64,000 nt of DNA from Candidatus Sumerlaeales bacterium. GTDB lineage: Bacteria; Sumerlaeota; Sumerlaeia; Sumerlaeales; Sumerlaeaceae. Shown piece by piece: positions 1,077 through 59,302 of this stretch (its first letter is position 1; every line of letters begins with the position of its first letter). The notes beneath the pieces were generated by a model. That model did no database searches and was not told where the DNA came from. It saw nothing but the letters and a program-made list of their open reading frames with translations. Where the stretch lies: assembly GCA_038243585.1 (NCBI GenBank), contig JBBSQY010000001.1, forward strand, positions 1 to 64,000, given 5' to 3'. The position numbers and the translations under genes are program-made.

Positions 1077-2600
1077 TTAGTAAACGCTCCAGTTGCCTAC
1101 ACTGGACCCTGTGCCTACGTAGTCGCCGTAGCCGCTCAGGTCTGATCCGCCAGTGCCCGCGTTGTCATACGTGGCCGCTGCCACGTCAACAAAGTCGGCC
1201 GCCGGATACGTATCGGCATTTACGAATTCCGGATCCGTATTAATAACGTTCGTCTGAACTGGCGTTGGGGTACCACCAGTTAGAGAGAAAGGGCTAGCGG
1301 CTAGCGAGTGCGGTCCGGCAGTTACAATCGCGGAATTAGTAAAACTAATTGCCGCGTTGGGCATATTAAACTGCAAAGCGTTTTTGCCTGTTCCATCGCC
1401 GATATCACCATTGCCCGCAATCACGGAATCCACGAAGGTGATAGGTCCGGTTGATGCCCCTGGGGTTGCTTCCAATAAATTGACAATCTCGAAAAAACTG
1501 GTACTGGGCGCGCGCACATTATTAACCATTGTTACGCTATTGAAAGACCACGGTGTTTTAATGTCACCAATTGCGACTACTGCTGAATCGGCATTATCAA
1601 CCCATGCTACTTTTGTTGCAGTTAATGGCACAACGCTGTCAGCAGGATCGATAAAGTTTGTGGCAATTGCCGTATTATTGTTTTTATAAAATACCACATT
1701 TTCCATCTTCACCTTGCTATCAGGCAGGCTGTTATTATCGAAGTAGATGCACAATGCGGCGTTTTTTACGGGCGTTCCCTGCAGATTACCAGTAAAAACA
1801 ACGGGCTCGGTTTCGGTGCCCACAATATTAACAATTGAGCCATCGCTCGCAACCTGAACTCCGGCGCGGTTCATAAAAGAAAAAACGCTGCCTGGTCCGA
1901 TATTAAGCGTGCGAAGCGCATCGGAAGGAAAAAATACAAGCCCGTCATTTGTCACGGCATCGCCATTAAAAATATTGCTAATGATGACACCTGTAGTATC
2001 CACATCCACGAAACCAGTGAAGAACATACCATCATCGGCAAAAGATGTCTTGCCCGCGTTAGCGGTCAGGCTCAGGCCATCAGTAGTCACGGCCGCGTTA
2101 GACCCGTTGTTGCTGCTCAGCAGGACGTTTACGAGTTCTATCTTCATATCATCGGTAGAAAGGCTGCCGGTGTTATTACTGGAACGAACGCCACGGGTAG
2201 GGGCGTTGCCCACCGCGGGAATGATGTCCATGTTTTCCAGGCGGACCTTGATGTCGCCACCACTGCCAGCATTAGTATAGATGCCAATGCCGTTGCCGTT
2301 AAGGGTTCCATCTGGAGCGCCGGCGATAGGCGGCGTTACGACAGTCGGGCGAATCAGGGCTCCGCGAACGGTAACGCTGAAGTTGATAAGCAAGTTTTCC
2401 TGGTAAGGGCCGCCGGCAACAATTTCAACGATCCGGGGCTCCTGCGTGGTTTTTACGTAATTCAACGCAGCGGTGATGGTTTGATAACTGACAGTGGGAA
2501 CTTCCGGGACCACGCTGTTTACAGAAACGGTAGCGGCCGACACGGAACAGGCCAAGCCAGCTATGGCCCCTATGGATAAAAATCTTAAAACGGAATGCAT
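1077..2600 (-). CDS. Secreted Asn/Gly/Thr-rich protein, probable beta-helix (pectin-lyase-like) fold, with C-terminal W-x-V-Y tail
   Basis: Sec signal (ACSVSA-A); SYQTITAALN resembles the N-terminal cap of beta-helix proteins; ends SSVGNWSVY. Confidence 0.7.
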   Translation of the reverse strand: MHSVLRFLSIGAIAGLACSVSAATVSVNSVVPEVPTVSYQTITAALNYVKTTQEPRIVEIVAGGPYQENLLINFSVTVRGALIRPTVVTPPIAGAPDGTLNGNGIGIYTNAGSGGDIKVRLENMDIIPAVGNAPTRGVRSSNNTGSLSTDDMKIELVNVLLSSNNGSNAAVTTDGLSLTANAGKTSFADDGMFFTGFVDVDTTGVIISNIFNGDAVTNDGLVFFPSDALRTLNIGPGSVFSFMNRAGVQVASDGSIVNIVGTETEPVVFTGNLQGTPVKNAALCIYFDNNSLPDSKVKMENVVFYKNNNTAIATNFIDPADSVVPLTATKVAWVDNADSAVVAIGDIKTPWSFNSVTMVNNVRAPSTSFFEIVNLLEATPGASTGPITFVDSVIAGNGDIGDGTGKNALQFNMPNAAISFTNSAIVTAGPHSLAASPFSLTGGTPTPVQTNVINTDPEFVNADTYPAADFVDVAAATYDNAGTGGSDLSGYGDYVGTGSSVGNWSVY

Positions 2601-2952
2601 ACAAAACCTCTAGTTTTATTTGGGTGAATCAAACAATAGTTGACACACACTGTTCCTTAAGACATTAACAGTTTGCCGAAGTTGCTATTTAGGCGAAATG
2701 AGACAAATATTGTGGGCAGAGTCTTCACGCTCTTGAGGCATTAGGGCACCCAAATTTGATGCTACAAGAACCGCTGTACCACAGATTGGCGCCCGCGATT
2801 ATACCCGCCTTTTAACCTTTATCACTAACGGTTATTGCTAATAAAGGAATCGGATGGCGGGGTGACGGTACTATACCGGTCAGGCGTCGGGCGGATAGTT
2901 TGCTATTGAAAAGAACTGCCAGGCGCTTAAATTATTACCCGAAACGGATCAG

Positions 2953-5900
2953 ATGTCGCTGTCGAGATGGTCGCAAAACAGTAAGAAGAATCCCTACATA
3001 GCCAAGTGGGAACCCGCACTTTTGGAGTTTCTAGAAAACGGTGTTCCTAAACTATTGGGCCGCGTTACTCCTTATTTGAGCGATCGCTTATTCGATATCG
3101 AGGCAGAGTCGGCGGAGATGCTTTCGTGTTGGGTTGACGGCAACAGCGACGAATATGAGACGTTGATACGTCCAGTATCCGGGTCTCTTTACGCAGAATG
3201 CACATGTCCGGTGGGTGATGACTGCAAACATGCTCTTGCCTTGGCGCTTGTGCTGGTGTGGCAGGCGCGGAAGGCGGGAAACGATCTGCCAGAGAAGCTT
3301 GAAAACGATTATGCAACCGCCTTTGATCTGCTTGATGAGACCGACCTTCAAATAGATAACCTCAAACGCATTCTCGGTTCCCCCGCAGAAGCGGAGTCGA
3401 CAATATCTGACCGCGCACAACCCCCGGAAAACTGGTGGGGAATTATCGCAGCTAATGTCGGATGGACTGAGCAAAAGCAGATCATTCAGAAGGTGCTTAA
3501 GGTTCGCCTGCCTGGGGTATCCTTCTGGCATCTTGAAAACATTGCAAATGCCCTGAAGACGGTTAAGAATCCCATTCACCGCCTGAAGATGATGAATGAA
3601 AAAGTGGAAGAGTTCCAACGGGGCTACTCATACAATCGCTCTGGAAGAGGGGTTCGAGAACCAGACTCCGGACTAATGGCGTTTCTCTCATCACCGGAGG
3701 CTGTTAAGCTTGAAGCAAAGTATGATCGGGAGATAGCGCAGGCTGAATTGGTCCAGTGGCTGCACCGGGCAGGAGAAATACGGGAAGAACAGCATCTTGT
3801 TGAGCGGATGGAAATTACCTGGATGCCTGTTCCGGCGCTGGATGGATTTTCGACACTATATTTTCAGATGAAAGTAGATGCCGGCCAGCGCGGTCTTTTA
3901 GCGCGCAAGCCGGGGGGTATCCTCCAGGTCGGCCGCGACATCGAAGGCGGGAAACGCAACTTCGGACGCTCGCGCAACAATCTGATTTCATGGATAGCAG
4001 AAAGCCACTGCTATTCCACTACCAGTTTCCGGGATAAAGAAGACCCTCGCGATGAGACGCTGATTCCCGTTTCCCACATCTATCAGTGGGTAACCACCTG
4101 GGGCAAGCTGATCCGCTGGCATGACGGTGGCACCATCACATTTTCGCCGCACTCGGCCGAACTGACCCTGTCTGAGGGCGATGGCGACAATCCTCATTGG
4201 GTGGTAAAATTTGCTCCGCGGGCCGATGGATCAGAACGAGAAATCGCCTTTACTGACGCTTCGATTATTGTTGATCGCCCGGAGGGTCATGACGGTTCGG
4301 ACGACGCCTTCAGCTATTTTATCCGAGACGGGGATATCCTGACGCGGATTGAAACTCACGGGATGTCTCCGACGGTCTTACGCGCCATCAGAAAGCTGGG
4401 CGCGATTCCCATGCATGCGCTGGCAGGCACTCCAGCCGGAAGCGCTCTATTCCACGTCCTGTCGCAAGGGCGCGAGCGGGGGCGCTTGAGCCGCTGGACG
4501 ACGGAAATACCGTGCCGGGGGGAAGTGGAACTAGCAATCGATGAGGAGACGGATTTTATTGTCTCCGCGCGAGCGCGCGCAATCGCGCCCGATGGGCCTT
4601 GTTTCAGCTGGAGGCCACATTCAGGGTGGGTGGTGCGCGGGGACGCACAGCAACGTCCTGATGTTGACGGCGTTGCACTAGAGGACGTCGAGAGTGGGAA
4701 TTCATTGCCGCTGGAGCCGCAGGAAGCTGAACTTTCTGCAGCCATCAATGACGCCGCCACCGTTCGCGAGCCTGAGGTTTTAGAAGGCGCTCCTGACGAC
4801 CTGATCAGCGCGGAACTGGATGCTGACGGGAAATCGCGGCCCCGCCTGCACAGCCTGCCGCGCCGGGAAGATGTGGAGCAGCTCGAGCACTGGCTGGATG
4901 CGGTTACGTTGTGCGTAAGCGGTATGGTAGCTCCGTCAGATGACCAGTCGCTAAAGGGGCAGCTGAGTTCTTCTGGCCTGGCCGCTTTTCTTCCGCTATG
5001 GTTCCAGCGTCCGGGAAACATCGATTATTTCGGCAACAATGAGTTTCGCAAGATGGTCACCGTGCGAGCCGCCCCGAAAATTTCCGTTGAAGCGGAGCCG
5101 TCGGGACTCGACTGGCTAAAGGTTTCCGTTACACTTGAAGAGGAAATCAGCCAGACCTCCTTCGCTGAGATGTCGAAACTGCTGGCGGCTGGAGCGGAAA
5201 ATTTCGTGCGGCTACCCAATGGAGGAATTTATAGACGGGCGGACCTGGAGGAGTATCGTGATCAACTGGATCAGTTGAACGCTTTGGGTCTGACGACAAA
5301 CCCGGCGGAGCAGAAACTGCATGCGCTTCACTTGGCGGGCGCACCGGCTGGGGTGCTGTCACAGCTGGAAGCCGGCGGGGGCGCTCTTACCGCGCTGGCG
5401 GAAAAGTCGCGCCAGATACTTTTGGATTTTTCCGGCATACCAGCGGCCCCTGTGGCTCAGGAGACGGGAGATTTTCTACGCCCCTACCAGCGTAACGGAC
5501 TCAATTTTCTTGTATGGGCGGCCAATAACTTTGGCGGCGCGCTGCTGGCGGATGACATGGGATTGGGTAAAACCCTCCAAATGATTGCCACCCTTTTATC
5601 TCTGCGTGAAAGCGCTGCGTCTTCTAACGGAGCCGAAAGCGCACCGCCCGGACCGACCCTGGTGGTATGTCCCGCTAGTGTCGCTCACAACTGGCAGCGG
5701 GAAGCACATCGATTTGCTCCGGAACTGAGCGTTATGGTCCTTGAGCGGGGCGCTGCCCGGCGTAAACAGCTGGAGCAACTTGAAAAGCATGACATTGTGA
5801 TTATGAACTTTTCTTTGCTACGGCGCGACATCGAAACTTTAAGTGAAATAAGCTGGTTTGCCATTGTGGCCGATGAGGCGCAGGCCATCAAAAATCCTCA

Positions 5901-6870
5901 TTCGGAATCAAGTCGCGCGCTGAAGCAGCTGAATGCGCGATACAGGTTTGCCATGACGGGAACGCCCATAGAAAATCGAATCTCTGATTTGTATTCCATC
6001 GTGGATTTCGCTCTGCCCGGCTACCTGGGCCCGATGGACAAATCCACCAATTCAACGGATCCGGAATCGGCAGCACGGGCCAGTCAGTTGCTGCGCTCTC
6101 GCTTGCGTCCGGTGCTCATCCGCCGGCTGAAGGCGGAGGTCGCGCCTGAACTTCCAGAGCGGGTGGAAACGCGGATCGACTGCGACATGGGCGCCGCCCA
6201 GAAAAAGCTGTATGCGGCCGAAGTGAAACGAGTTCGCCTGATGCTCGACGGCATGACAGAGTCCGGCGTCAAAGGCAAGCAGCGCATCGAAATGCTGGCC
6301 GCTCTCATGCGGCTGCGCCAGATTTGTTGTGACCCGCTCCTGCTCGGACATCCTGAGGTTTCCAGCGGTAAAACCGATGAGCTGCTTGAGCTGGTGCCGC
6401 CGTTGTTACAGGCTGGCCACAAGGTTCTTATCTTCTCACAGTTTGTGAAAATGCTGAACCACCTGGAAGAGCAACTGGTGGAGAAGGACATCCGCACGTA
6501 TAAACTCACCGGCGCCACCACGAACCGGCAGGATCTTGTCGATAAGTTTGAAAATGATGCGGATCCCGCAGTGTTTCTAATTTCTCTGAAAGCCGGAGGC
6601 ACGGGCCTGAACCTGGTTTCCGCCAGCCACGTAATCCTTTTCGATCCATGGTGGAACCCGTCTGTAGAGGCCCAGGCCATCGACCGGACCCATCGGATTG
6701 GTCAGGACAAGACGGTGGTGGCATATCGCCTGGTTACCCAGGGCACGATTGAAGAGCGCATCTTGGAACTACAAGAGCAGAAGCGGGCGCTGGTGCGGAA
6801 CATACTTGAAGAGGATTCGTTTAACCGCACCCTTACCAGCGAGGATTTCCAGTACCTGCTGGGCGGGTAG
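2953..6870 (+). CDS. SWIM zinc finger plus SNF2-family helicase/ATPase
   Basis: SWIM CTCPVGDDCKH; LADDMGLGKT, DEAQ, TGTPIEN, FDPWWNP, QAIDRTHRIGQ. Confidence 0.95.
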   Translation: MSLSRWSQNSKKNPYIAKWEPALLEFLENGVPKLLGRVTPYLSDRLFDIEAESAEMLSCWVDGNSDEYETLIRPVSGSLYAECTCPVGDDCKHALALALVLVWQARKAGNDLPEKLENDYATAFDLLDETDLQIDNLKRILGSPAEAESTISDRAQPPENWWGIIAANVGWTEQKQIIQKVLKVRLPGVSFWHLENIANALKTVKNPIHRLKMMNEKVEEFQRGYSYNRSGRGVREPDSGLMAFLSSPEAVKLEAKYDREIAQAELVQWLHRAGEIREEQHLVERMEITWMPVPALDGFSTLYFQMKVDAGQRGLLARKPGGILQVGRDIEGGKRNFGRSRNNLISWIAESHCYSTTSFRDKEDPRDETLIPVSHIYQWVTTWGKLIRWHDGGTITFSPHSAELTLSEGDGDNPHWVVKFAPRADGSEREIAFTDASIIVDRPEGHDGSDDAFSYFIRDGDILTRIETHGMSPTVLRAIRKLGAIPMHALAGTPAGSALFHVLSQGRERGRLSRWTTEIPCRGEVELAIDEETDFIVSARARAIAPDGPCFSWRPHSGWVVRGDAQQRPDVDGVALEDVESGNSLPLEPQEAELSAAINDAATVREPEVLEGAPDDLISAELDADGKSRPRLHSLPRREDVEQLEHWLDAVTLCVSGMVAPSDDQSLKGQLSSSGLAAFLPLWFQRPGNIDYFGNNEFRKMVTVRAAPKISVEAEPSGLDWLKVSVTLEEEISQTSFAEMSKLLAAGAENFVRLPNGGIYRRADLEEYRDQLDQLNALGLTTNPAEQKLHALHLAGAPAGVLSQLEAGGGALTALAEKSRQILLDFSGIPAAPVAQETGDFLRPYQRNGLNFLVWAANNFGGALLADDMGLGKTLQMIATLLSLRESAASSNGAESAPPGPTLVVCPASVAHNWQREAHRFAPELSVMVLERGAARRKQLEQLEKHDIVIMNFSLLRRDIETLSEISWFAIVADEAQAIKNPHSESSRALKQLNARYRFAMTGTPIENRISDLYSIVDFALPGYLGPMDKSTNSTDPESAARASQLLRSRLRPVLIRRLKAEVAPELPERVETRIDCDMGAAQKKLYAAEVKRVRLMLDGMTESGVKGKQRIEMLAALMRLRQICCDPLLLGHPEVSSGKTDELLELVPPLLQAGHKVLIFSQFVKMLNHLEEQLVEKDIRTYKLTGATTNRQDLVDKFENDADPAVFLISLKAGGTGLNLVSASHVILFDPWWNPSVEAQAIDRTHRIGQDKTVVAYRLVTQGTIEERILELQEQKRALVRNILEEDSFNRTLTSEDFQYLLGG

Positions 6871-6931
6871 TTGATCGGGGAGGGGTGCTACCTGGAGCTT
6901 GCGCCCCGGCCGACCAACTCTAACCCTGCCG

Positions 6932-8989: not shown

Positions 8990-9862
8990 TTAATCCAACC
9001 GCGCAAGATCTACCCAGGCGCCGCCAAGGTTTCTACTATCTTCTGCAGCGTGTTCAACGGCCACGGTCGCAAACTGCTCTTCAAGAGAAACCGGAGATTC
9101 TTTGGTTTCAAAAAACCGAAGATACTCTTCCACCAGATTAATATAAAACTGGTCCCAGTTGAGAACGACAGCCTTATGTATATGGTTTCCAGAGCGAACC
9201 CCCAGTTCCCACGGGAACACGTCCGCCTGGTTTTCGCATTCGTGACATTCGATGAGGCAACGACGTGCGCCGTCGTCCAGTATAACAGCCCGGTCAAGCT
9301 CTGTACCAGTATCGCAGAGGCGCTTGATGTGAGGACCAAAAGCGCGCAGGGCCAGGGCAATCGTGTGGACGCCATAATGCATCCGCCAGCGGCCCATTCC
9401 GCGGGCAAAAACGTAATCATAAGGGCCATCAACCTTCGCCATAAGATCGCGAACCTCATCAGCAAAACGCAGTGACGAGGAGGTCATAAGCGGGGTGGCA
9501 TTTTCTCTGGCTATGGCTACCATTTCTCGGGCGTCGTCGATGGTATGGGCCAAATATTTGTCGACATAAACTGGCTTGCCAGACGCGAGAGCCACGCGGG
9601 AAAGCTCCAGATGTGCCTCCGGATTGTTGGGCGAGACCACCATAAGTACATCGCTGGCTTCCACGACCTCTTCCGGAGATGATGCTCGCGAAATGTTGTT
9701 CTCCTTGCACCAATCGCCTTTATCCGTATCCCGGTGAGATTCGTAGGCTGCGGCAAATTCAAAGCGGCCATTGCCTGTGTCGCCTAGAATATGGGGCAGG
9801 AAAACCTGGCTATGATGAGTGTAAAGGTGGTGATCGAGCCACCCGATCTTAAGTTTAGACAT
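8990..9862 (-). CDS. Gfo/Idh/MocA family oxidoreductase
   Basis: GKPVYVDKYLA (EKP-like) motif, SSSLRFA, YGVH. Confidence 0.85.
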   Translation of the reverse strand: MSKLKIGWLDHHLYTHHSQVFLPHILGDTGNGRFEFAAAYESHRDTDKGDWCKENNISRASSPEEVVEASDVLMVVSPNNPEAHLELSRVALASGKPVYVDKYLAHTIDDAREMVAIARENATPLMTSSSLRFADEVRDLMAKVDGPYDYVFARGMGRWRMHYGVHTIALALRAFGPHIKRLCDTGTELDRAVILDDGARRCLIECHECENQADVFPWELGVRSGNHIHKAVVLNWDQFYINLVEEYLRFFETKESPVSLEEQFATVAVEHAAEDSRNLGGAWVDLARLD

Positions 9863-9982
9863 GAAAGAAACCTTGGAGAGTTATGATGTTGCTGTAAAGC
9901 CTAATGTTTGCGAAACTTTCCTGGCCTGCAACGTACGCAAACGGTATAAGAGGCCCGGAACATCGAACATCTTGTGGTGCCA

Positions 9983-11137: not shown

Positions 11138-11255
11138 TGAAGCGGTGTCCCCTTTCAATAATCGCGTTGCCGGACAGCTTAAGGTACACTAAAACCGACG
11201 GAAATTGGCTATCAACGCGCATTATTCGGGGGCAAGAAGTATACCGAAGCTTGAA

Positions 11256-12473
11256 ATGCTTATACTCGGAATCGAAACCTCCTGCGATGAAACCTCTGTA
11301 GCCCTTGTGGAGGACGGACATCGCCTTGTGGCCAGCGACGTTGCCAGCCAGGTACTGATGCATGAGAAGTTTGGCGGTGTTGTCCCGGAAATCGCCAGCC
11401 GCGCGCACATTCAGAAACTGGTGCCGATGATTGATGAATGTCTCGGACGAAACGGCTTGGCCCTGACAGATGTTGACGCGCTGGCGGTTACCTTGGGGCC
11501 GGGTCTGGTGGGGGCCCTGCTTGTGGGGGTAGAGACCGCAAAGGCATTGGCATTCGCGGCAGGCAAACCGCTTATCCCGGTTCATCACATCGCGGGTCAT
11601 CTGTATAGTCCGATGGTTTCCGGACCAACTGAGGCCTATCGACATATCGTAGTTCCTTTTGTGGGTCCGTTTGAAGGTCAATCGGCCGGAACCATGAACC
11701 CAATTCGTAATGAAGCGCCAGATGCTTCGGAAACTATTGATCATTTACCTGCTGCCACTCAAGCGCCAGCTGTTGAATTGCAGCAGGATTCTCAGCTCCA
11801 CTTTCCTTATTTGGGCCTGGTGGTTTCCGGGGGCCATAGCAGTTTGATCATGGTGAAATCCGCCATGGAATTCGAAATCCTTGGCGAGACCGTAGACGAT
11901 GCCGCAGGCGAGGCCTTCGATAAACTGGCCAGGCTTCTGGATCTTGGCTACCCCGGCGGACCATTGGTAGAAAAAACGGCTCGGGGGGGGAACCCGGCGG
12001 CATACAATTTCCCTCGTCCGATGCGAGCCAAATCATTCGGATACCAATTCAGTTTCAGCGGCCTGAAAACAGCGGCGCTAAACCAGGTCACCGCAATGGG
12101 AGGCGCAGCGGCGGTTGCCGGGGATCCGACGGCGATGGCAGATATTTGCGCGTCTTACCAGGACGCTATAGTAGATGTGCTGCTGTCTAAAACGTTACGC
12201 GCTCTTAAAGAAAGCAAATGCGGCCAGGTTGCCATTGTCGGGGGTGTCGCGTGCAATGGCAGGCTTCGCGAGATGGCTGCCCAGCAGCTTGGACAGGCTG
12301 GGCGTGTGGTTTTCCCACCACCCGCTCTATGCACGGATAACGCGGCCATGATTGCGGGTTTGGCCTGGCACCACCGCGATCTACATCGCGGCTGCGACCT
12401 GACCCTGAACGCCCAGGCCAATCTGCCGTTGGGGCCCGTGATGCCGCGCGACAGATCGACCCCGTACGAATAA
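11256..12473 (+). CDS. tsaD: tRNA t6A37 threonylcarbamoyltransferase TsaD with an internal insertion
   Basis: LGIETSCDET, GGVVPEIASRAH, HHIAGH, VSGGH, DDAAGEAFDK, FSFSGLKT, CTDNAAMI; start ATG 11256. Confidence 0.97.
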   Translation: MLILGIETSCDETSVALVEDGHRLVASDVASQVLMHEKFGGVVPEIASRAHIQKLVPMIDECLGRNGLALTDVDALAVTLGPGLVGALLVGVETAKALAFAAGKPLIPVHHIAGHLYSPMVSGPTEAYRHIVVPFVGPFEGQSAGTMNPIRNEAPDASETIDHLPAATQAPAVELQQDSQLHFPYLGLVVSGGHSSLIMVKSAMEFEILGETVDDAAGEAFDKLARLLDLGYPGGPLVEKTARGGNPAAYNFPRPMRAKSFGYQFSFSGLKTAALNQVTAMGGAAAVAGDPTAMADICASYQDAIVDVLLSKTLRALKESKCGQVAIVGGVACNGRLREMAAQQLGQAGRVVFPPPALCTDNAAMIAGLAWHHRDLHRGCDLTLNAQANLPLGPVMPRDRSTPYE

Positions 12474-19432: not shown

Positions 19433-19438
19433 TCCTGC

Positions 19439-41584: not shown

Positions 41585-41639
41585 ATTTTTTAGGTATTAA
41601 TGATTGCCTTGCCGTTTCTTGGACCTCAGAACCAGATTT

Positions 41640-42992: not shown

Positions 42993-44279
42993 GTGACCGA
43001 TAACACAATTAGTCGCCGTGACCTGTTGAAGGCGGGCGCCGCCGCTGCTCTAGGCTTTACTATTGTCCCACGCCACGTCCTCGGCGGTCCTGGCTATACG
43101 CCCCCCAGCGAACAAATTACCCGCGCTATTATTGGCACGGGTGGCATGGGGCGCGGACATATCAACTATGACCTTGGTCCCCTGCTTGCGGTTTGTGACG
43201 TAGACAGCAACCATCTAAAAATGGCCCTGGACCAGGCAGGCCAAAAAGGTTATAAAAACGTCGCCTCTTACAAGGATTGGCGCGAAGTAATTGAACGCAA
43301 AGACATCGATCTGGTGCATCTCCCCTGCCCGCCCCACTGGCACGCAGTCATGGGCATAGCCGCCGCCAACGCTGGCAAAGACATCTGGGGCGAAAAACCC
43401 ATGTCCCGCACCATAGGCGAAGGTCTCGCCCTGCGCGACGCCATCAAGCGCAATGGCAGAATCTTCCGCGTAAACACCTACTGGCGCTATGAGCGTGAGT
43501 TCTTCGGCCTCGGCGCACCCGTCAAAACCATCAAAAAGATGATCATGCACGGTATGCTCGGGTGGCCCGTAAAAGCCTATCTCGGCGAAGTTCACGGGTT
43601 CGAATGGAAAACCTTCGCGTGGTCTGGACAGCCCGGCCTGAAAGAGGAACCGGTACCGGCGGAACTGGACTATAATATGTGGCTTGGCCCCGCGCCTTAT
43701 AAGCCATACAACAAGGACCGCGTCCACATGAAGTTCCGTGGCTACTGGGATTATGACGGCGGCGGCCTGGGAGACCAGGCCCAGCACTTCGTAGACCCGG
43801 TTCAGTACATCCTGGGCAAAGACGACACGAGTCCCATCGAAGTGGAAGCCGACGCCTACGAACAGCATCCGTATGCCGTACAGCCTTTCCGCAACGTCGT
43901 TCTTCGCTACGCAGACGGCTGCGAAATCAAGATTGACGCCGAAATGGGCGATCCTGACACCCCAATGTTTGAAGGTCCGGAAGGGAAAGTACTCAGCGGC
44001 TTCCGTTGCTCTATCCCTGATTGGGAAAAGAAACTGGCTCAACTTCCTGACCCCGATCCACAAAATGATGACTTCAAGGCGTGCCTGTTGAATCGCCAGC
44101 CCTTCTGCCTCAACGAACAGGTCAGTCATCGCGCCTGCACCCTGATCAACCTCGCGAAAACCGCCGTACGCACCGGGCGGAAACTACGCTTCGATCCAGA
44201 CAAATTCGAGTACATCGACGATGCACAGGCGAATCTCCTGATTAACGAACCAATGCGCGCGCCGTGGTCGCTGAGCTAA
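42993..44279 (+). CDS. Tat-exported Gfo/Idh/MocA oxidoreductase (copy 2)
   Basis: GGAGG Shine-Dalgarno; SRRDLLK; GTGGMG; GEKP; WLGPAP; close paralog of the preceding gene. Confidence 0.93.
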   Translation: MTDNTISRRDLLKAGAAAALGFTIVPRHVLGGPGYTPPSEQITRAIIGTGGMGRGHINYDLGPLLAVCDVDSNHLKMALDQAGQKGYKNVASYKDWREVIERKDIDLVHLPCPPHWHAVMGIAAANAGKDIWGEKPMSRTIGEGLALRDAIKRNGRIFRVNTYWRYEREFFGLGAPVKTIKKMIMHGMLGWPVKAYLGEVHGFEWKTFAWSGQPGLKEEPVPAELDYNMWLGPAPYKPYNKDRVHMKFRGYWDYDGGGLGDQAQHFVDPVQYILGKDDTSPIEVEADAYEQHPYAVQPFRNVVLRYADGCEIKIDAEMGDPDTPMFEGPEGKVLSGFRCSIPDWEKKLAQLPDPDPQNDDFKACLLNRQPFCLNEQVSHRACTLINLAKTAVRTGRKLRFDPDKFEYIDDAQANLLINEPMRAPWSLS

Positions 44280-49827: not shown

Positions 49828-50700
49828 TCAATCCAGTCTCACAATGCGCAGCTGCGCCCCTGCTGCGAGATCGATAATACTAGGCCCCGTTGTAGTCTCT
49901 AAGTAAATACTGACTTGATCTCCCGCCCCCAGGTCCAGCCAGGTCTCACTGTTCAAAGGATTGGGAACCGACAGCGTGCCAAACGTATGAACTTTCACTC
50001 CATTTCGGTACAAGTTAACCGATGCTGTAGAGTCTGGAAAAGCAAACTGTGACATAGAGAGACTGACAGAGACCATGTAATAGCCGGACTGGGTAGGTGA
50101 AAAATTAATCAAGAATCCGCTAAAGCCGGCGTTTTTAACCAGGGTGTCAAAGTTCACAGGCTCATTGCTTAAAACACGTTGTGAAAACGAGCTTTTAGCC
50201 ACCATAATAGGTGTAAAGTCAGCGCTCAATTTGGCGCGGTTTATAGCGCCATCTTCAACTTTTGCGCCGGTTATAGCGCCATCCTTGATCGACGCGGTAT
50301 CAACGCCCGAAGCCGCCACGGACAGCGCAACCGGCGCAGGCGTAATCGGCTGGCGCGGTGTCAGGACCGTGTGAGCGACGCCACTGCCAGACGGCCTCAC
50401 CCGGATTTCCAGATAGCGGGCTTCATTGCCAAACGCGCCAACGCCAAAACTTAGAGGCACAGTAAACAGTCCGTTAGTAACCACAACACCATTCAGCGCG
50501 TTTACGCCACCAATTTCAGAGCCATTCGCCGCCGCATCAAACAACCGGAATTCAAGGTCCTGAGGAACCGTAACAGCTGTACCCCCGTGATCTAAACGGC
50601 CCTGGTAAGTGAAAGTATCGCCTATCGGCGCAGCAAAAGCCTGCGCTGTGAAGCCAAAACAAACCATAGCGACCAGCGCGACTGCCAATTTAAATCTCAT
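49828..50700 (-). CDS. Secreted protein: FTYQGRL N-terminal domain, short DGAITxAK stalk, C1q-like head
   Basis: Signal peptide; FTYQGRL...FRLFD...NGLFTVPL...YLEIRV...LTPRQ; C-terminal FSPTQSGYY...LYRNG...LGAGDQV. Confidence 0.75.
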   Translation of the reverse strand: MRFKLAVALVAMVCFGFTAQAFAAPIGDTFTYQGRLDHGGTAVTVPQDLEFRLFDAAANGSEIGGVNALNGVVVTNGLFTVPLSFGVGAFGNEARYLEIRVRPSGSGVAHTVLTPRQPITPAPVALSVAASGVDTASIKDGAITGAKVEDGAINRAKLSADFTPIMVAKSSFSQRVLSNEPVNFDTLVKNAGFSGFLINFSPTQSGYYMVSVSLSMSQFAFPDSTASVNLYRNGVKVHTFGTLSVPNPLNSETWLDLGAGDQVSIYLETTTGPSIIDLAAGAQLRIVRLD

Positions 50701-50853: not shown

Positions 50854-51732
50854 TCAGTCCACGCTCACAATGCGCAACTGAGATCCAGCGGCCACATCAA
50901 CATATGTTTTTCCATTCACGGCTGTGGCCAGCGTAGTAACAGAAATTTGATCACCCGCCACAATGCCGAGCAAAATCTCCCTGTTCAGAGGATGGTCAAC
51001 TGACAACGGTCCAAGAGTGTGAACTTGCACTCCATTACAGCACAGGTAAACCAATGCTGTAGAACCTGGAAACGCCGACTCTGACATCGTGATGCTGACA
51101 GAAGTCCTAAAATTGCCGGACTTAATAGGAGAGAAATTAGTCCCGAATCCAGTAATGCCGTCACTTTTATCCACGGAATGAAAGTACACAGGTTCTTTCG
51201 CAAAAAGAGTTTGCGAATATATGCTGTGAGCCGCAAGGGTTGACGTAAGATCGTCGCTTATCTTGGCTCGGTTATCAGCGCCATCCTTAACCGTAGCCTT
51301 TTTAGCCCTCGAAACCGTAGCCTTTTTAGCGCTTGAAACCGTAGCCTTTTTAGCCCTTGAAACTGGCACAGACGTTATAGCCTGGCGCGGAGTCAGGGTC
51401 GTGTAGGCGACGCCGCTGCATGATGGCCTCACTCGGATTTCCAGATAGCGGGCCCCATTCCCAAACGCGCCGACACCAAAGTTCAGCGGCACACTATACA
51501 GCCCATGAGTAACCGCAACGCAACTGAGTGCGTTCACGCTGCCAATTTCGCAACCATCATGCACCGCGTCAAACAACCGAAATTCCAGGTCCTGTGGAGC
51601 AGTAACAGCGGCACCCTCGTAATTCAGCCGCCCCTGATAAGTAAAAGCATTCCCCACCGACGCAGAAAAAGCCGGCGCAGTGCAGAAAAAATAAACCACA
51701 GCAGCCAGCACGACTTCCAAACGAAATCTCAT
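50854..51732 (-). CDS. Tandem paralog of 49828..50700
   Basis: Colinear similarity along the full length; start ATG 51732 after AGAGG, as in the paralog. Confidence 0.75.
   Translation of the reverse strand: MRFRLEVVLAAVVYFFCTAPAFSASVGNAFTYQGRLNYEGAAVTAPQDLEFRLFDAVHDGCEIGSVNALSCVAVTHGLYSVPLNFGVGAFGNGARYLEIRVRPSCSGVAYTTLTPRQAITSVPVSRAKKATVSSAKKATVSRAKKATVKDGADNRAKISDDLTSTLAAHSIYSQTLFAKEPVYFHSVDKSDGITGFGTNFSPIKSGNFRTSVSITMSESAFPGSTALVYLCCNGVQVHTLGPLSVDHPLNREILLGIVAGDQISVTTLATAVNGKTYVDVAAGSQLRIVSVD
51289..51360 (-). repeat. Three tandem 24-bp repeats encoding S(R/S)AKKATV
   Basis: Plus strand AACCGTAGCCTTTTTAGC(C/G)CT(C/T)GA x3. Confidence 0.95.
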
Positions 51733-52032
51733 GTTGAGGAAACCTCTGATATATTGGCTTAATTGCTCTGAAAAAAAACACGTTACCATAACTATTAGGA
51801 GCGGTTATGCAATTATTTAGGTTTTTGCGCCAGATCCGCAGCTTACAATTGATGACAGGAAATGGCTGTCAAACCGGAGCTTTTGCACCCCACGAACTTG
51901 TGGGCATGGAGGGCATTTTCGCACGTTTCAGTTTATCTTTTAATGAGAGGTTGTTGCCAGGAGAAACAGTTTGTGTCGTCCGACGCCGGGCATGGCAGCA
52001 AGATTATCACTGCCATGCCCCCTTTCGCCATA

Positions 52033-53427
52033 CTAGTTATAAAGTTGCCAGTCGCCCACACCGCTACTGGTATCAAAATGAACCCAGTCAAACTCCGCTG
52101 TCATCTGGGGCCCACCGTTATCATTGACTTTCTTGCCCAACAGCTGCACCTGGGTATTCTGAAGCTCCGTGCTGTACGTGTGGCCGCCATTCGGCAGGCT
52201 GATCCAGGTGACATTATCGAAGCTATACTGGGCCGTGTAAGTGGATCCTGCTTTATCGATTCGCAGATAAGCCGGAAGCGGATCGCCACCTAGGTTAATT
52301 TCGTCCACGTTCCATTCATTGGAATCGGCGCGCTGGTAGACGGCCTGAACCATATGAGCACCCGCATCGGTCCGCAAATTTGCGATTGATGCATAATCAT
52401 TCTGATCCTGCCACAGCCACAGACCATAACCGGTCCAATTTTGAAAGTTAAACAGTTCCGTGGGGCCCACTTTTGCAGTAACCTTTAAGTTAGGGACTAC
52501 GGGTGCCTTTTGGAAGACCCTGACTGCCTTATCAATTCCGCCCCACTGATCATTAAAATTGGCGGGAGTAATCCGCAATGCACCGCCTGATACGGCAATC
52601 GTTGATGCTTCAATACCCTCATGTTTCCCCCAGACCAAAGGATCAAGAGAGGTCCCTGCAAACTCATCATTCGTCCCTGCAGACGCCGTTGGTACGGCGA
52701 CAGGACCTGTGCGGATAAAGTCAAACAGACCGACGTCATTTTGCCCGTTGGTGCCGGGCCCCGACTGAATCAGTCTGATTTTTTCGTTAGTAAAATATCC
52801 TGTTGCTGCGTTTTGTGAGTTGCGGATCAAGCGGTTCACCTGTATCCAGGTGGTTCCGTCATAGCTGACCAGACCAAAGTATCCATTCTCCGTTTTCTGG
52901 ATCTTCAGCCATACCGGATTCTGGGTTACATCCCAATAAGCCTGGTCCCCGCCCCATTCATGCCAGTTTTCCGTGCGATTGGCTACGAAATCGGAATTGT
53001 AAGCGCCCTCAACACCCCGTCGCCATGTCGGGTTGCCGTCATTACCCAGCGCCCAGACGCCAAACCAGTGGTCGTTGTCCTGCCACAGCATAAGGCCACA
53101 CTTGTTCCAGTTATTCTGTTTGCCCGCCGCAGTAGGGTCAAAGTCATCAAGTTTGGTAACGATTTCCCAGTTCGTGCCACCCGGCGCGTCCTGTTGAACA
53201 TACGTGTATTTGTCGATAAAAAAGAACAGGTCTGCCCCTTCCATCGCTTCAATGGAAAGGTGGGTTCCCGTGTGACCGATTACGCTGCCCACAGGGTCGC
53301 TATCTTGAAAAGTCCACTGGGTCCCAAGAGATCCCCCGTTAAACTCATCAGCAACGAACTGTCCGAAAGATAATGAGGCACAGGAAAGCGCACTGCCCAT
53401 CAGAAATAATGTTTTCAATCGATTCAA
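52033..53427 (-). CDS. Secreted protein with two ConA/LamG-like (DUF1349 / xylosidase C-terminal-like) domains and W-x-L-Y tail
   Basis: Signal peptide; duplicated DEFxGxSL...GLxLWQD...WLKI/YLRI...SxDxxTW...FD; ends SSGVGDWQLYN. Confidence 0.8.
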   Translation of the reverse strand: MNRLKTLFLMGSALSCASLSFGQFVADEFNGGSLGTQWTFQDSDPVGSVIGHTGTHLSIEAMEGADLFFFIDKYTYVQQDAPGGTNWEIVTKLDDFDPTAAGKQNNWNKCGLMLWQDNDHWFGVWALGNDGNPTWRRGVEGAYNSDFVANRTENWHEWGGDQAYWDVTQNPVWLKIQKTENGYFGLVSYDGTTWIQVNRLIRNSQNAATGYFTNEKIRLIQSGPGTNGQNDVGLFDFIRTGPVAVPTASAGTNDEFAGTSLDPLVWGKHEGIEASTIAVSGGALRITPANFNDQWGGIDKAVRVFQKAPVVPNLKVTAKVGPTELFNFQNWTGYGLWLWQDQNDYASIANLRTDAGAHMVQAVYQRADSNEWNVDEINLGGDPLPAYLRIDKAGSTYTAQYSFDNVTWISLPNGGHTYSTELQNTQVQLLGKKVNDNGGPQMTAEFDWVHFDTSSGVGDWQLYN

Positions 53428-53502: not shown

Positions 53503-53532
53503 CAGTGAAAACAAAGCAAGAAAGAGGGTCAA

Positions 53533-54207
53533 ATGAAACCTTCCGGATTCACATTAATTGAATTGCTGATCGTAGTGGCAATTATCGCCATTCTTGCTGC
53601 GATAGCCGTACCAAACTTCCTCGAAGCACAGACCCGCGCAAAGGTATCCAGGAGTCTGGCTGACATGCGGACTATCGACACCGGAATCCACACTTACGTG
53701 CTTGATAACGATAAGGTTCCGCCCAGTGCCGCCCCAAACTTCGTGTGGCCTTACGCAGTGGATGGCAATGGTTGGATTCGCAGTTGGCGTCAGCGCCTCA
53801 TCCCCGTCACCACCCCCATTGCCTACCTTTCCACCGTTCCCAGCGATGCATTTGGTATGAACTCGATCCACGCGAAAAAACCACCACCTGGATTCAAGTC
53901 TGGCGATTTCACCGTGCCCCAGTATTGCGAAGACTATTTTGTAAGCCTGCCAACACGCGGGTATCTAAGCCCCCCGGGCAGGCCCGGAGCAGGTTATGTC
54001 AGCTATGATGCAGCACAACAGGATGTTGGTTGGAGACTAATTTCCTGCGGGCCAGACAACGTTTTTAACTACGATGACTCCGCCATTCCAGCAGCGCCAT
54101 TCTGGGAAAAAGATGGAATGCCCTATGACGCCTCCAACGGAACCGTTTCCCATGGGGACGTGTTTCGCTACGGTGGTGCCGACCGCGGCAATCGTAATAA
54201 GATATAG
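53533..54207 (+). CDS. Prepilin-type N-terminal cleavage/methylation protein (paralog of 19439..20137)
   Basis: SG|FTLIELLIVVAIIAILAAIAVPNFLEAQTRAK; VTTPIAY; SCGPD; YDASNGTVSHGDVFR. Confidence 0.93.
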   Translation: MKPSGFTLIELLIVVAIIAILAAIAVPNFLEAQTRAKVSRSLADMRTIDTGIHTYVLDNDKVPPSAAPNFVWPYAVDGNGWIRSWRQRLIPVTTPIAYLSTVPSDAFGMNSIHAKKPPPGFKSGDFTVPQYCEDYFVSLPTRGYLSPPGRPGAGYVSYDAAQQDVGWRLISCGPDNVFNYDDSAIPAAPFWEKDGMPYDASNGTVSHGDVFRYGGADRGNRNKI

Positions 54208-54661
54208 AACGCGGTTGTGACATAAAATAAGACGCTGCAATATCGGATGCTACGCTACCCCATAGTATCACCGAGCAGCATCCATTTTGGCGAATCGTGT
54301 TTGTTTTTCCGTCAAATTTCTCCGTCCACAATCTTGCCTAAATGCCCATGCGGGAATACCACACTCATATCCCCCATGGCAGAACCACACCCATGAAAAC
54401 GACAAACACACCCCAGCCAGCCTCGGCCCCAAACCTAAAACTTGCACCAACGCTTTAATTAAGTACCTAATAGAAAAAACTAAAACACTCCAACACAAGC
54501 ACTTGCATATTAATTAATTAAAAAAAACCGAGGGCTGTGGACAAAATTTTCAAACAAAAATCATCGCGGCTATGCTTTAAAGTTTCGCCTTATGCTCTGG
54601 ACATTAACGGTTATGCGGCCCACACAACGTTTATATTTCACACATCCGGCGGTCAAGCTTA

Positions 54662-56017: not shown

Positions 56018-56088
56018 GGTTTGTAACGCCGAGACGCGGAGGTCGTAAGCTTATATAGCAACCTAAGAACTAAGCGCCCTATCAGAAC

Positions 56089-56119
56089 AAAAAAAAGCCC
56101 CGCCAAAACTGGCGGGGCT
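56089..56119 (-). terminator. Intrinsic terminator of 56193..57719
   Basis: A-tract then AGCCCCGCCA-aaac-TGGCGGGGCT, i.e. a U-tract on the minus strand. Confidence 0.85.
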
Positions 56120-56192
56120 CTAGTGCATCATGCAAATTCTCCACAGCAGTAAGGAAAGGCCAGTTAGAACCAGCCCTATACCGTACGCGTGT

Positions 56193-57719
56193 TTAGTTGA
56201 ACAAAGACCACTCAGCGATCCCCGAAAGAGCGTCGTTAGACGTGTTCGGCGTCGGACGATCCGTCGGTACTAGATCCGTTGGAGAGAATGTGCGAATGGT
56301 GGACGAACCGTCAGGCCTGCGGCCGAGAGACCCGCCGGCTGGGATTGCAGAAACGCCGGAATTGATAAATCCGTCCACGTCAGGAGAATCTTCCCCCCCA
56401 AGAAACGCAACGCCGTCGAGCAGTTGGGTCCCATCGGAAATTCCCACCAAAGACCCCGCATTACGGATTCGCGCAACTGTATAAGTAAACGTCGTGCCCG
56501 GGATGAAGCCCGTTGGGTTGCCCGATGAAAACACAGTGACAAAACCACCTGCAGGAAGAGTAGCCCCTTCCGGGAAAACGTAGCTGTGAAACACCTCGCT
56601 GTCCGAATCTTTACAACGTTGTTCCCATCCTTCAATAAGAATTGGGGCTGCGGTCATGTTGAAAATTTCAACGAATTCATCATTTTGACCAGCAGTGCTT
56701 CCGTCATTGTTATGATCTACTGTACCAGGGTTATAACAGATTTCATTAATCTTTACAGATCCTGCGAGAGCCGGAGTACCACGCACGAGTTCCGTGGCAA
56801 ATTCGATCGACCCGGAAGGAGAAGTCAAACCGTCGGTCGCGTAGGTAACCGACCCGCTATAACTCTTGTTAGTGCTCACGTCAGATTCAACAAACTGAAC
56901 TGTAAGTGTTGTGGATTGGTTAAATTGCAGAGTAACGGGTAGCGCGGGAGTGACTCCATCAAAATAAGTAAAAGCAGTGGATGAAGACGGCTCGAGCTGG
57001 AAACTGCTCACTGTCAAAGGAGCAGTTCGGGTGTTTTTCAAAGTAATAGTTTTGCTTGTTGGCACAACTGCCGTTGCCTGATTCATCCTGGGAAAATCGA
57101 GTTGATTAATAGAAAAACCCGACTGCCGCGAGTTGACGGCTCTGGGCGTAGGCTCAGCGGGCACCCACAATCCACCGTTTCCGTCTGGTATGCGGGATAA
57201 GCCTACAGACGTTGCGTTACCATAAACACCTTCATTGTAGACGGGAGGGGATCCCAACCCGCTCCAGTCAATATCTCCCTGGACACCAACCTTATACACA
57301 AGCACGTCAACAATTCCGGAAGTGGTAGGGAGTGTTCCAGTCGGAAAAGAGGCTGCCGAACCAGTATAAAGAACGACGGCATCGTTGCCGTTTTGGAGTT
57401 TATTGTTTGCCAGCACCACGTCCGCACCTGAAATCGCGCTGTTCGCAATCAGAATATAGCCGTTTGCATCAGCGGTTAACCCGCTGAGGTCGAAAGCGAG
57501 GTAACTTTTAGGACCCACACCCCCCGAAGCAGCACCGTCATAAAGAACCACCACCAAGCCATCGGCCGACTCATTTGGGTCACCCTTAAGCTCGATAAAT
57601 TCTGCGGCATCCGTCCCAGGTGTGTCCGCGTCTATTTCGTTTATTAAAAATGCTGCGGACGCACTGGCACAAAGGCATGAGACCAATGCGATGCCGACCA
57701 AACTCTGTACAAATTTCAT
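56193..57719 (-). CDS. Secreted protein: lamin-tail domain, Ig-like domain, second lamin-tail domain, W-x-L-F tail
   Basis: Signal peptide; two INEI...EF(I/V)E...PTP modules flanking TITLKNT...PLTVS; ends LSGIAEWSLFN. Confidence 0.82.
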   Translation of the reverse strand: MKFVQSLVGIALVSCLCASASAAFLINEIDADTPGTDAAEFIELKGDPNESADGLVVVLYDGAASGGVGPKSYLAFDLSGLTADANGYILIANSAISGADVVLANNKLQNGNDAVVLYTGSAASFPTGTLPTTSGIVDVLVYKVGVQGDIDWSGLGSPPVYNEGVYGNATSVGLSRIPDGNGGLWVPAEPTPRAVNSRQSGFSINQLDFPRMNQATAVVPTSKTITLKNTRTAPLTVSSFQLEPSSSTAFTYFDGVTPALPVTLQFNQSTTLTVQFVESDVSTNKSYSGSVTYATDGLTSPSGSIEFATELVRGTPALAGSVKINEICYNPGTVDHNNDGSTAGQNDEFVEIFNMTAAPILIEGWEQRCKDSDSEVFHSYVFPEGATLPAGGFVTVFSSGNPTGFIPGTTFTYTVARIRNAGSLVGISDGTQLLDGVAFLGGEDSPDVDGFINSGVSAIPAGGSLGRRPDGSSTIRTFSPTDLVPTDRPTPNTSNDALSGIAEWSLFN

Positions 57720-58021
57720 AAAATGTTTATATCTTTCCCGTATTTAAGTTCATAATTAACTCGTACTCGTATACGTGCAACTCAGCAATATATCGTATAA
57801 AACGCGTTTTTTCAGAATCTTAGTTCGTGCGGGAACGTCTGATTTTCGGTCACCGTTAATTAAGCGTCCTTCAGCGGTATGGGCCGCTGCACATATTCAA
57901 GATACGACCGAGTCCGGCCACAGAGTTTACCGTCGGCAGAGGACGTACAGAGCATGATGGGGAATACCCTACTGAGCCTTATTAGAATGCCTGTAACAGC
58001 GTGATTAACCCACTGCTTTTG

Positions 58022-59302
58022 CTATTCGAACATATCCCAGCCGGCGGCCCTGTTTGTTTGCTGATTAGGATCCAAGAAGAACCCCGCCGGTGCATACGTA
58101 TGACCCGGGAAAAGCGTTGCCAATGTGCTGTCAGAAACCCCGCGTCGCGCCTTTAGGATTTCGCCTATTACGGAACGAAAATCGGTTGTGGCTGCTACGT
58201 CCACAGATTCAAATAGCTGACCCTGCGCCAGTCCCGGCCACGCTCCGTATATCTTTTTCTCAAGCACATTTGAGCTGAGCACCATCATCAATCCGCCGTG
58301 CCCGTGATCTGTGCCCAGGTTATCATTCTCACGCACTCGCCGCCCGAATTCGCTCATAACCACCACGGTCAGTCTGCCGTGATACTCCAGCAGGTCCGAC
58401 CAGAACGCATGAAGACCATCGGCCATTTGCTTTGCATTGTTCGCGAAATAACCTTGGTGCGGGCTCCCGTTGTTGGCCTGGTATTCATGGGTATCCCAAC
58501 CTCCCAAATCAACCGTTGCAGCTTCCAACCCGAGATTCATTCTTATAATCTGCGCCACGGATTTCAAGGTTTCCGCAAAATCTGTATCCGGGTAAACGGT
58601 ACCGTTCCCCGGCACGTAATCCCCAGTGGGGTTCGCATCGATCAGGTCTACGGCATCCAGCGTGCGATTCGCCACACCACTCAGCCGCGGATCAGCGGCA
58701 TACATTTGTCGCAGTGCGACTCGAAAATCATCAAGATGATTATAGTGAGTATGCAGTGTAAAATCCTCCGCCGACTCCATTGTCAGTGCTCCGGGAAATC
58801 CTTCCAGCGATATGGAGGCGGCACCGTTCAGCGATACCGCGCGAAAGACGCTATCCATGGGACTTGACGGTACCAGGTGGCGCGCCAGCCAGCCATCCCC
58901 GGTTTTGGCAGCGCTGCCTGTCAGGCCGCGATCCATGATATCCTGAGCATCAAAGTGGCTTCGGTTTGCCTCCGGAAAACCACACGCCGGAATAAACGCC
59001 AAGTGTCCTGCATTGTACAACGTGGCCAGCTTATCGGCGCCTTTATTTATACCAAAGTAGCCGTTTAAATCAATTACGTTGGCAGCATCCAATCCCAGCC
59101 TGCTCCGCGCCTGGTGGTATTCTGTATCAGACCATGGTGCCAGCAGGCTGAGTGCATCCATTCCGCCACGCAGAAACACTGATACAATTATATCGCGATT
59201 GCCCGGGCCTTGCCCGAACGTCAGATTGCCAAGCCTGGCACCGGCCAAGGCCATGATGCTGGAGCAGCAACCCTGCAAGAACGTGCGCCGTTTCATCTTC
59301 AT
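58022..59302 (-). CDS. DUF1501 family protein (Tat-exported) with W-x-M-F tail
   Basis: KRRTFL; FLRGGMD; RSHFDAQD; GGWDTH; SEFGRR; GTDHG; TDFRSV; ends TNRAAGWDMFE. Confidence 0.92.
   Translation of the reverse strand: MKMKRRTFLQGCCSSIMALAGARLGNLTFGQGPGNRDIIVSVFLRGGMDALSLLAPWSDTEYHQARSRLGLDAANVIDLNGYFGINKGADKLATLYNAGHLAFIPACGFPEANRSHFDAQDIMDRGLTGSAAKTGDGWLARHLVPSSPMDSVFRAVSLNGAASISLEGFPGALTMESAEDFTLHTHYNHLDDFRVALRQMYAADPRLSGVANRTLDAVDLIDANPTGDYVPGNGTVYPDTDFAETLKSVAQIIRMNLGLEAATVDLGGWDTHEYQANNGSPHQGYFANNAKQMADGLHAFWSDLLEYHGRLTVVVMSEFGRRVRENDNLGTDHGHGGLMMVLSSNVLEKKIYGAWPGLAQGQLFESVDVAATTDFRSVIGEILKARRGVSDSTLATLFPGHTYAPAGFFLDPNQQTNRAAGWDMFE

Follow-up and report, generated by a model that had tools for sequence, protein, structure and literature searches.

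Four exported proteins end in a common tail

The window analysed here comprises the first 64,000 nucleotides of contig JBBSQY010000001.1 from a Candidatus Sumerlaeales bacterium (phylum Sumerlaeota; assembly GCA_038243585.1), and four of its 50 called genes encode exported proteins that end in a similar tail of about nine residues. All four genes lie on the minus strand. P0001 (1077–2600; 507 amino acids) ends in SSVGNWSVY, encoded at 1080–1106 and followed by the stop codon at 1077–1079. P0002 (52033–53427; 464 amino acids) ends in SGVGDWQLYN (52036–52065) and is matched by the ConA-like Pfam families GH43_C2 and DUF1349. P0003 (56193–57719; 508 amino acids) ends in SGIAEWSLFN (56196–56225); its Pfam lamin-tail (LTD) match covers residues 319–409, and an AlphaFold2 model adds a beta-rich N-terminal part. 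P0004 (58022–59302; 426 amino acids), a DUF1501 protein with a twin-arginine translocation (Tat) signal, ends in NRAAGWDMFE (58025–58054).

An initial annotation of this stretch had proposed that these endings are a C-terminal sorting signal shared by four unrelated exported proteins. The translated open reading frames (ORFs) end exactly in the four sequences that it gave. As it had also stated, each protein has a Sec or Tat signal by visual inspection: the N-termini of P0001–P0003 are Sec-type and that of P0004 contains a twin-arginine motif (RRTFLQG). Its description of the protein bodies as unrelated is supported by Pfam for the ConA-like, lamin-tail and DUF1501 proteins; the 'beta-helix' ascribed to P0001 has no Pfam family behind it. 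P0001 has three tagged paralogues elsewhere in the genome.

The tail is enriched at the C-termini of exported proteins

The complete assembly (G000) consists of 99 contigs totalling 3.43 Mb, with a GC content of 52.5% and an estimated completeness of 89.7%. Genes were called by a simple codon-score and greedy ORF procedure, a crude heuristic that made 2,578 calls and accounted for 87% of the DNA. The regular expression offered with the initial annotation, [VIA]..W.[LVMI][YF].{0,2}$, matches the C-termini of 73 of the 2,578 proteins, compared with 0.32 expected, an enrichment of about 230-fold over internal positions. The expected value was derived from the internal rate, the seven-residue core being found 40 times at 984,016 internal positions. 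A slightly broader expression yields 78 carriers. About 3% of the proteins in this genome therefore have the tag, and nearly all of these are exported enzymes and binding proteins.

Tagged proteins are also enriched for signal peptides. By a lax heuristic, 59 of 73 tagged proteins are positive, compared with 967 of 2,505 others (Fisher p = 5e-13); by a stricter heuristic, 46 of the 78 carriers are positive. The earlier statement that no cytoplasmic protein carries the tail holds within the window, and across the whole genome it meets a few exceptions. One protein has a cytoplasmic-looking N-terminus and only a weak tail (C97, 418–2157), and another has a canonical tail and no visible signal peptide (C65, 12821–13591). 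Several of the exceptional carriers look truncated or mis-started at the N-terminus; one of them (C1, 183268–184362) begins 6 bases from a contig end.

Anatomy of the tag

To describe the tag we aligned the 73 tails on their invariant tryptophan (position 0). The consensus is [S/T]-[A/S]-V-x-D-W-x-[L/I/V/M]-[Y/F] followed by the stop codon, or S-x-V-x-D-W-x-L-Y in short. Position -5 is S, T or A in 69 of 73 tails and position -4 is a small residue. Valine occupies position -3 in 45 tails, alanine in 22 and isoleucine in 6; position -1 is aspartate in 45 of 73. Position +2 is L, I, V or M, and the aromatic residue at +3 is tyrosine in 60 tails and phenylalanine in 13. The protein stops immediately after this aromatic residue in 45 of 73 cases and exactly one residue later, mostly E, D, Q or N, in the other 28. 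A second flavour, [T/S]-A-A-x-x-W-x-L-[Y/F]-[E/D/Q/N], is thus one polar residue longer: alanine at -3 is paired with the extra residue in 18 of 22 tails, compared with 10 of 51 for the rest (p = 8e-7). The tag of P0004 is of this A-type and slightly degenerate. Because both flavours occur among the orthologues of a single protein, the relatives of P0003, we treat them as one signal.

Upstream of the tag, positions -12 to -6 are enriched in proline, tyrosine, asparagine and threonine; a short Pro/Thr-rich linker joins the tag to the protein body. In an alignment of 34 tails, spanning three genera and two phyla, only the final nine residues align. In the AlphaFold2 model of P0003 (19 orthologues, mean pLDDT 86) residue 478 closes the last strand, and the stretch 498–508 is coil with pLDDT below 50. 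The tag is therefore modelled as a disordered appendage beyond the last domain and not as an integral strand of the fold, a possibility that would have removed the case for a signal.

The tag is portable and conserved

Removing the last 15 residues from the 78 carriers and clustering the remainder by single-linkage BLAST gives 45 clusters, so the unrelatedness claimed for the four window proteins extends to at least 45 groups. Enzymes identified among 40 representatives include NAGPA, GHL10, GH43, polysaccharide deacetylase, amidase, M23, S8 and trypsin-like peptidases, endonuclease/phosphatase, metallophosphatase, nucleases and glucose/sorbosone dehydrogenase. Also represented are BNR, Kelch and FG-GAP propellers and the modules BACON, LTD, fn3 and Golvesin_C, and 14 of the 40 representatives match no family. 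Together, the 45 unrelated clusters and the approximately 230-fold terminal enrichment exclude both chance and common descent as the origin of the tails.

Within a family, the tag is retained. Nineteen of 20 full-length relatives of P0003 (63–35% identity) keep it, and in the twentieth it has decayed. Among LTD proteins that are more distant, those from Flavobacteriia have the type A domain of the type IX secretion system (T9SS; PF18962) at the position of the tag, and one protein has a transmembrane (TM) helix followed by a basic tail. LTD proteins with no signal of any kind stop at the closing 'PTPGAAN' motif of the domain. The family thus shows the 'choice-of-anchor' pattern expected of a sorting signal. 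For P0004, the tag is canonical in 7 of the 9 closest orthologues and decayed in 2; it is absent from more distant DUF1501 proteins, and the Tat signal is kept in all. Since P0004 and its orthologues have Tat signals, the tag is also found on cargo that crosses the inner membrane in a folded state.

Many of the distant DUF1501 relatives (P0109–P0140) have a short tail of similar shape without the tryptophan (..PSGMALY, ..PTGFRVR, ..HGMVLR). In other lineages these endings may be a motif related or ancestral to the tag.

Two phyla carry the tag

We scanned DNA with a strict pattern, V-x-D-W-x-Φ-Y-stop, which has 28 matches in this genome and 0 for the reversed control. It is present in 42 of 75 Sumerlaeota species genomes (up to 26 copies). 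In a second phylum, that of two metagenome-assembled genomes (MAGs) labelled 'Candidatus Omnitrophota bacterium', 34 of 35 genomes (4–8 Mb; up to 23 copies) contain it. In 207 genomes from other phyla the pattern is at background: 1 of 101 in the phylum of a MAG labelled Verrucomicrobiales, 4 of 101 in that of a MAG labelled Mariniblastus, and 0 of 5 under other labels. The tag is therefore specific to Sumerlaeota and the second phylum among the lineages covered, in line with the lineage restriction originally suggested.

The strict pattern under-calls. Inspection at the protein level of Sumerlaeota families that appeared negative revealed degenerate, mostly A-type tags: 5 in 187 ORFs of families f14 and f2 (for example AAGNWSLYE and SARSWQIYR), 2 in 276 ORFs of f7, and 1 in 270 ORFs of f8 plus near-misses. 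A 400-kb sample of one f16 genome (G069) contains the tag in 0 of 247 ORFs. Absence by the DNA pattern is an unreliable sign that a lineage has no tag.

PEP-CTERM, another C-terminal sorting signal, occurs in 6 of 7 f8 genomes (for example G015–G019) and almost nowhere else in Sumerlaeota, and the canonical tag is rare in f8. One signal may in part stand in for the other.

Pseudopilin genes are enriched near tagged genes

Contig C45 carries a complete operon resembling that of a type II secretion system (T2SS), contig C37 a pilMNOPQ set, and C32 (28553–33631, minus strand) a third secretin, of 1,692 residues, in which a long N-terminal extension with TPR repeats precedes XcpQ-like N0–N2, Secretin_N and Secretin domains. 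The genome also contains about 30 short GspG-like pseudopilin paralogues that share a near-identical prepilin N-terminus with N_methyl, weak T2SSG Pfam matches, and the conserved motifs LTTPxAY, DPF, GPD and YDATNGTxSxGDI. One of these pseudopilin genes (53533–54207, plus strand), with an N_methyl motif and an NCBIfam GspG/PilA N-terminus, is divergently adjacent to P0002. The second in the window (19439–20137, minus strand; N_methyl and T2SSG) adjoins no tagged gene.

The proximity of tagged and pseudopilin genes was analysed in this genome and then in others. Ten of 27 GspG-like paralogues are within two genes of a tagged gene, compared with 9.9% expected (p = 1.5e-4). A short pseudopilin gene directly adjoins 9 of the 78 tagged genes (11.5%). 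For comparison we used the 455 untagged, non-pilin proteins among the 2,578 that pass the stricter signal-peptide heuristic and have no later TM segment, of which 11 (2.4%) have such a neighbour (Fisher p = 8.5e-4); the figure for all other genes is 1.8%. One operonic cargo–pseudopilin pair of this genome lies on C11 (7500–9191 with 9209–9871).

The same coupling is observed at 60 independent tag sites, examined in 20-kb regions from twelve other genomes (40 sites belong to the second phylum and 20 to Sumerlaeota of other genera). Eleven pseudopilin ORFs lie within 1 kb of a tagged ORF, compared with 1.9 expected (Poisson p = 5e-6), and their density falls from 0.092 per kb within 1 kb to 0.016 per kb at 1–10 kb. 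Each of the 11 shares its strand with the tagged gene, from which it is separated by 0–320 bp. The 18 cargo proteins that are paired with a pseudopilin fall into 15 clusters, indicating that we are not counting one operon repeatedly. Family f14 contributes two more cargo–pseudopilin operons; the sample of such neighbourhoods from genomes negative by the strict pattern is small and rough.

The N-terminal part of the long secretin is present in 70 of 75 Sumerlaeota genomes, in relatives of 1,000–2,000 residues. By analogy with PEX5 and PTS1, we considered the TPR-secretin as a receptor for the tag and rejected it. Its TPR part is conserved within family f1 only, and region 700–1150 consists of TPR plus XcpQ-like N0–N2 and is no special peptide-binding fold. 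In the second phylum, 34 of 35 genomes contain this region; one tag-less phylum gave 0 of 61, and another gave 1 of 61, a weak, partial match. As a comparison of two phyla with two, this distribution is weak, and the tag-bearing phyla may simply be relatives. Profiling within Sumerlaeota gave no machinery part that tracks the strict-pattern classes; as these classes themselves miss degenerate tags, the profiles are uninformative and do not constitute negative evidence.

Other features of the window

Two paralogous genes for exported proteins of 290 and 311 amino acids (49828–50700 and 50854–51789, minus strand) lie directly downstream of P0002. They belong to a family of about 290 residues ending in ..LRIV.(L/V)D, whose third member in the genome is at C46, 7256–8107. 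All three members adjoin tagged genes; the neighbour on C46 encodes a tagged mini-protein of 95 residues. One member has a weak, sub-threshold BclA_C-like match, and the family is a candidate for a connection to the tag.

The adjacent plus-strand ORFs 17133–17609 and 17777–18520 correspond to positions 4–100 and 274–414 of arylsulfatase models, with the middle absent, and are probably a fragmented or frameshifted sulfatase gene. A single plus-strand ORF of 422 residues (11205–12473) contains TsaB (residues 20–129) followed by TsaD (177–389), which suggests a fused TsaB–TsaD protein for t6A synthesis. The tandem paralogues at 41604–42956 and 42993–44279 (plus strand) are Gfo/Idh/MocA-type 'glycoside 3-dehydrogenase-like' proteins; both end in ..EPMRAPW[TS]L[LS], a sequence unrelated to the tag. 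A 1,305-residue SNF2-family helicase is encoded at 2953–6870 (plus strand). Its C-terminal half resembles pilus-regulating or defence Snf2 helicases (ZorD, DrmD), with scores far below the curated cut-offs.

The tag matches no catalogued signal

We asked if any described signal accounts for the tag. No NCBIfam or Pfam model is matched by more than one of the 34 tails, even at E<=10. All 73 tails end within 0–1 residue of the aromatic position, so the TM helix and basic cluster of membrane-anchored sorting signals are absent after the motif. The PEP-CTERM model TIGR02595 has 0 matches in this genome, a search that covered the signal and not the exosortase, sortase and rhombosortase genes themselves. 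The T9SS domain (PF18962/TIGR04183) has no Pfam match in the four window proteins, the 40 representatives or the tails. A model for the T9SS core translocon SprA/Sov (TIGR04189) gave 0 candidates in the assembly, which is 89.7% complete, but the control genomes likewise gave 0.

The closest entries in form are NF053834 (ultrashort_CTERM) and NF050076 (sort_motif_YLP), catalogued models that describe putative sorting motifs of no more than 10–11 positions. In the genome, NF053834 has 0 matches and NF050076 a single sub-threshold one, in a frame of 25 amino acids away from any tail; neither matches any of the 34 tails at E<=10. The C-terminal signal of type I secretion was also considered and rejected: it is uncleaved and occurs on proteins that have no N-terminal signal peptide, and most carriers of the tag have Sec-type N-termini, with a Tat motif in P0004. 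We found nothing on the motif in a literature search whose coverage lacks most subscription journals and supplements.

The initial view that the tail fits none of the known signals is therefore borne out for the TM-plus-basic, T9SS and Pfam/NCBIfam comparisons and, as discussed below, for the outer-membrane beta-signal. Neither the architecture of the tag nor its scale corresponds to any described signal; C-terminal sorting tags as such are a familiar concept.

A possible route for tagged proteins

The tag is real, terminal, portable between proteins, conserved, modelled as disordered, restricted in lineage and absent from the catalogues, and tagged genes are coupled to pseudopilin genes. We are highly confident that the tail is a genuine sorting or targeting tag. 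How it acts is less certain. A link to the T2SS or its pseudopilus has a little less than an even chance in our estimate, and the explanation that we favour, tentatively and at much the same level, is that a portable tag links folded cargo in the periplasm to a machine resembling the T2SS. Tagged cargo would first cross the inner membrane by Sec or Tat, and on the folded periplasmic protein the tag would remain exposed and disordered. The tag would then be read by a periplasmic component of a T2SS-like (type IV filament) machine, and the machine would move the cargo via a secretin to the surface or the medium. The likeliest readers would be the expanded GspG-like pseudopilins, often co-transcribed with cargo, or alternatively the tip or the secretin N-domains. 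Such a mechanism would be analogous to that of the TcpF export signal. The T2SS is known to export Tat substrates. A destination beyond the outer membrane, reading by the T2SS-like machine, and the tag being cleaved or left in place are what we infer. We consider a more specific proposal less likely than not: a T2SS or type IV filament machine would here have a linear, portable secretion signal, the first of its kind, in which a C-terminal nonapeptide loads folded Sec- and Tat-exported cargo onto the pseudopilus and the approximately 30 GspG-like paralogues are the readers or adaptors. The initial annotation had named a surface scaffold, an S-layer or a pilus as the place of docking; the coupling of tagged genes to GspG-type pseudopilin genes favours the pilus-like option.

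Several observations weigh against secretion by such a machine. An adjacent pseudopilin gene is found for only about 12–18% of tagged genes, and because this share is low, pili and polymer-degrading enzymes could simply be regulated together, with no reading of the tag involved. None of the machinery parts examined yielded a reader protein. The GspG-like globular profile is present in 75 of 75 Sumerlaeota genomes and a protein at the GspC position of the T2SS in 63 of 75; with the long secretin, these parts extend across the phylum, including families in which the tag is rare and G069, and therefore none is specific to tag-rich genomes. The long secretin query found no match in the tag-positive genome G001. 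The weakly tagged proteins include a PnrA-like substrate-binding protein, a type normally periplasmic or membrane-anchored. Gene calls and signal-peptide calls are both crude heuristics, and the exit of tagged proteins from the periplasm is hypothetical.

Among other explanations, sortase-like processing is the foremost, though unlikely: a periplasmic or outer-membrane peptidase or transpeptidase, comparable to PorU or exosortase, would cleave the tail and attach the protein to a surface glycan or lipid. Three observations are consistent with this: relatives of P0003 have T9SS or TM-plus-basic sorting signals at the tag position; PEP-CTERM is nearly confined to f8 (6 of 7 genomes, and 0 matches in the present one), a family in which canonical tags are rare; and positions -5 to -3 have conserved small residues ([S/T]-[A/S]-[V/A]), which could form a cleavage site. 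However, the tails have no TM helix that would keep the substrate beside a membrane enzyme, gene neighbourhoods yielded no candidate enzyme, and the search for SprA was negative here, as it was in the controls. Somewhat less probable is a docking peptide that, like a minimal dockerin, plugs non-covalently into a receptor on a surface scaffold, fibre or S-layer and produces an enzyme-decorated surface. The tag is short, exposed and invariant in shape, its cargo is dominated by polymer-degrading enzymes and binding modules, and small fibre-like genes of BclA_C type adjoin three tagged genes. This last evidence consists of three genes and a sub-threshold Pfam match only, no scaffold with repeated receptor domains was found, and docking would leave the pseudopilin coupling unexplained unless the pilus itself is the fibre.

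PDZ-containing proteases read hydrophobic C-terminal peptides, raising the question whether an S41 Ctp protease or the PDZ domain of HtrA/DegP recognises the tail to mature, degrade or monitor its carriers. We count one S41 and two HtrA-like PDZ proteases in the genome, and one of them is encoded directly upstream of a tagged gene (C19). We consider this improbable: the adjacency is single, with no enrichment of these families in the neighbourhoods; the extra polar residue on 28 of 73 tags shifts the carboxylate; and the protease families are universal, whereas the tag is confined to two phyla. The least likely explanations, which we regard as effectively refuted, are a signal for the beta-barrel assembly machinery (BAM) and chance or inherited sequence with no sorting function. 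The BAM beta-signal ends in an aromatic residue, as the tag does, and is the last strand of an outer-membrane beta-barrel, with hydrophobic residues alternating at 1, 3, 5, 7 and 9 from the C-terminus. In the tag the hydrophobic residues are at 1, 2, 4 and 7, the carriers are soluble multi-domain enzymes and binding proteins with no barrels, and the tail is coil in the P0003 model. Chance and inheritance are countered by the approximately 230-fold terminal enrichment and the 45 unrelated clusters.

Should the link between the tag and type II secretion-like export hold, it would bear on how the T2SS chooses folded substrates, a long-standing open question for which no linear signal is known in classical cargo. 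Two whole phyla would settle this choice by a simple tag, and a nine-residue tag coupled to pseudopilins would make it accessible to peptides, pull-downs and reporter fusions. The tag could also serve biotechnology as a small secretion handle. It already provides a one-line predictor of the secretome for two uncultured phyla, including many proteins that have no family. Even without the T2SS link, it would be an uncatalogued sorting signal of a new architecture, with neither a TM helix nor a folded domain.

Comparison with known systems

Like LPXTG, PEP-CTERM, GlyGly-CTERM and MYXO-CTERM, the Sumerlaeota tag is a C-terminal, lineage-restricted, many-to-one signal on unrelated exported proteins; unlike them, it is not followed by a TM helix and basic cluster. 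The type A C-terminal domain of T9SS cargo occupies the equivalent position on homologous LTD proteins and marks a similarly large set of secreted enzymes. That domain is folded and has about 70–100 residues, whereas the tag has nine, is predicted to be disordered, and has no Pfam match.

In their cargo, tagged proteins resemble T2SS substrates, which are folded hydrolases exported by Sec or Tat, and the genome has both a T2SS-like operon and GspD/XcpQ-like secretins. They differ in the signal: we know of no linear signal in classical T2SS cargo, and a conserved nine-residue tag would be new. The closest parallels come from type IV filament machines. According to two papers, substrate recognition by the T2SS 'is not well defined' (PMC10120004), and TcpF has a disordered export signal that binds the minor pilin TcpB, is sufficient for export and is removed in the course of secretion (PMC9565799, PMC10120004). 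As described there, TcpF of Vibrio cholerae and CofJ of enterotoxigenic Escherichia coli, read by TcpB and CofB respectively, are Sec-exported folded cargo with a short disordered terminal peptide; their genes lie with pilin genes, and their export uses a secretin and a type IV filament machine. Two of these features recur here: the terminal peptide is modelled as disordered on folded periplasmic cargo (the P0003 model and, for folded transport, Tat-exported P0004), and cargo and pilin genes are linked for about 12–18% of tagged genes. The differences are of position, scale and partner. The TcpF/CofJ signal lies at the N-terminus, is dedicated to a single cargo in each system and has a large minor pilin as its binding partner, whereas the Sumerlaeota tag is C-terminal, marks about 3% of the proteome in at least 45 families, and has GspG-like pseudopilins of the major type as its neighbours.

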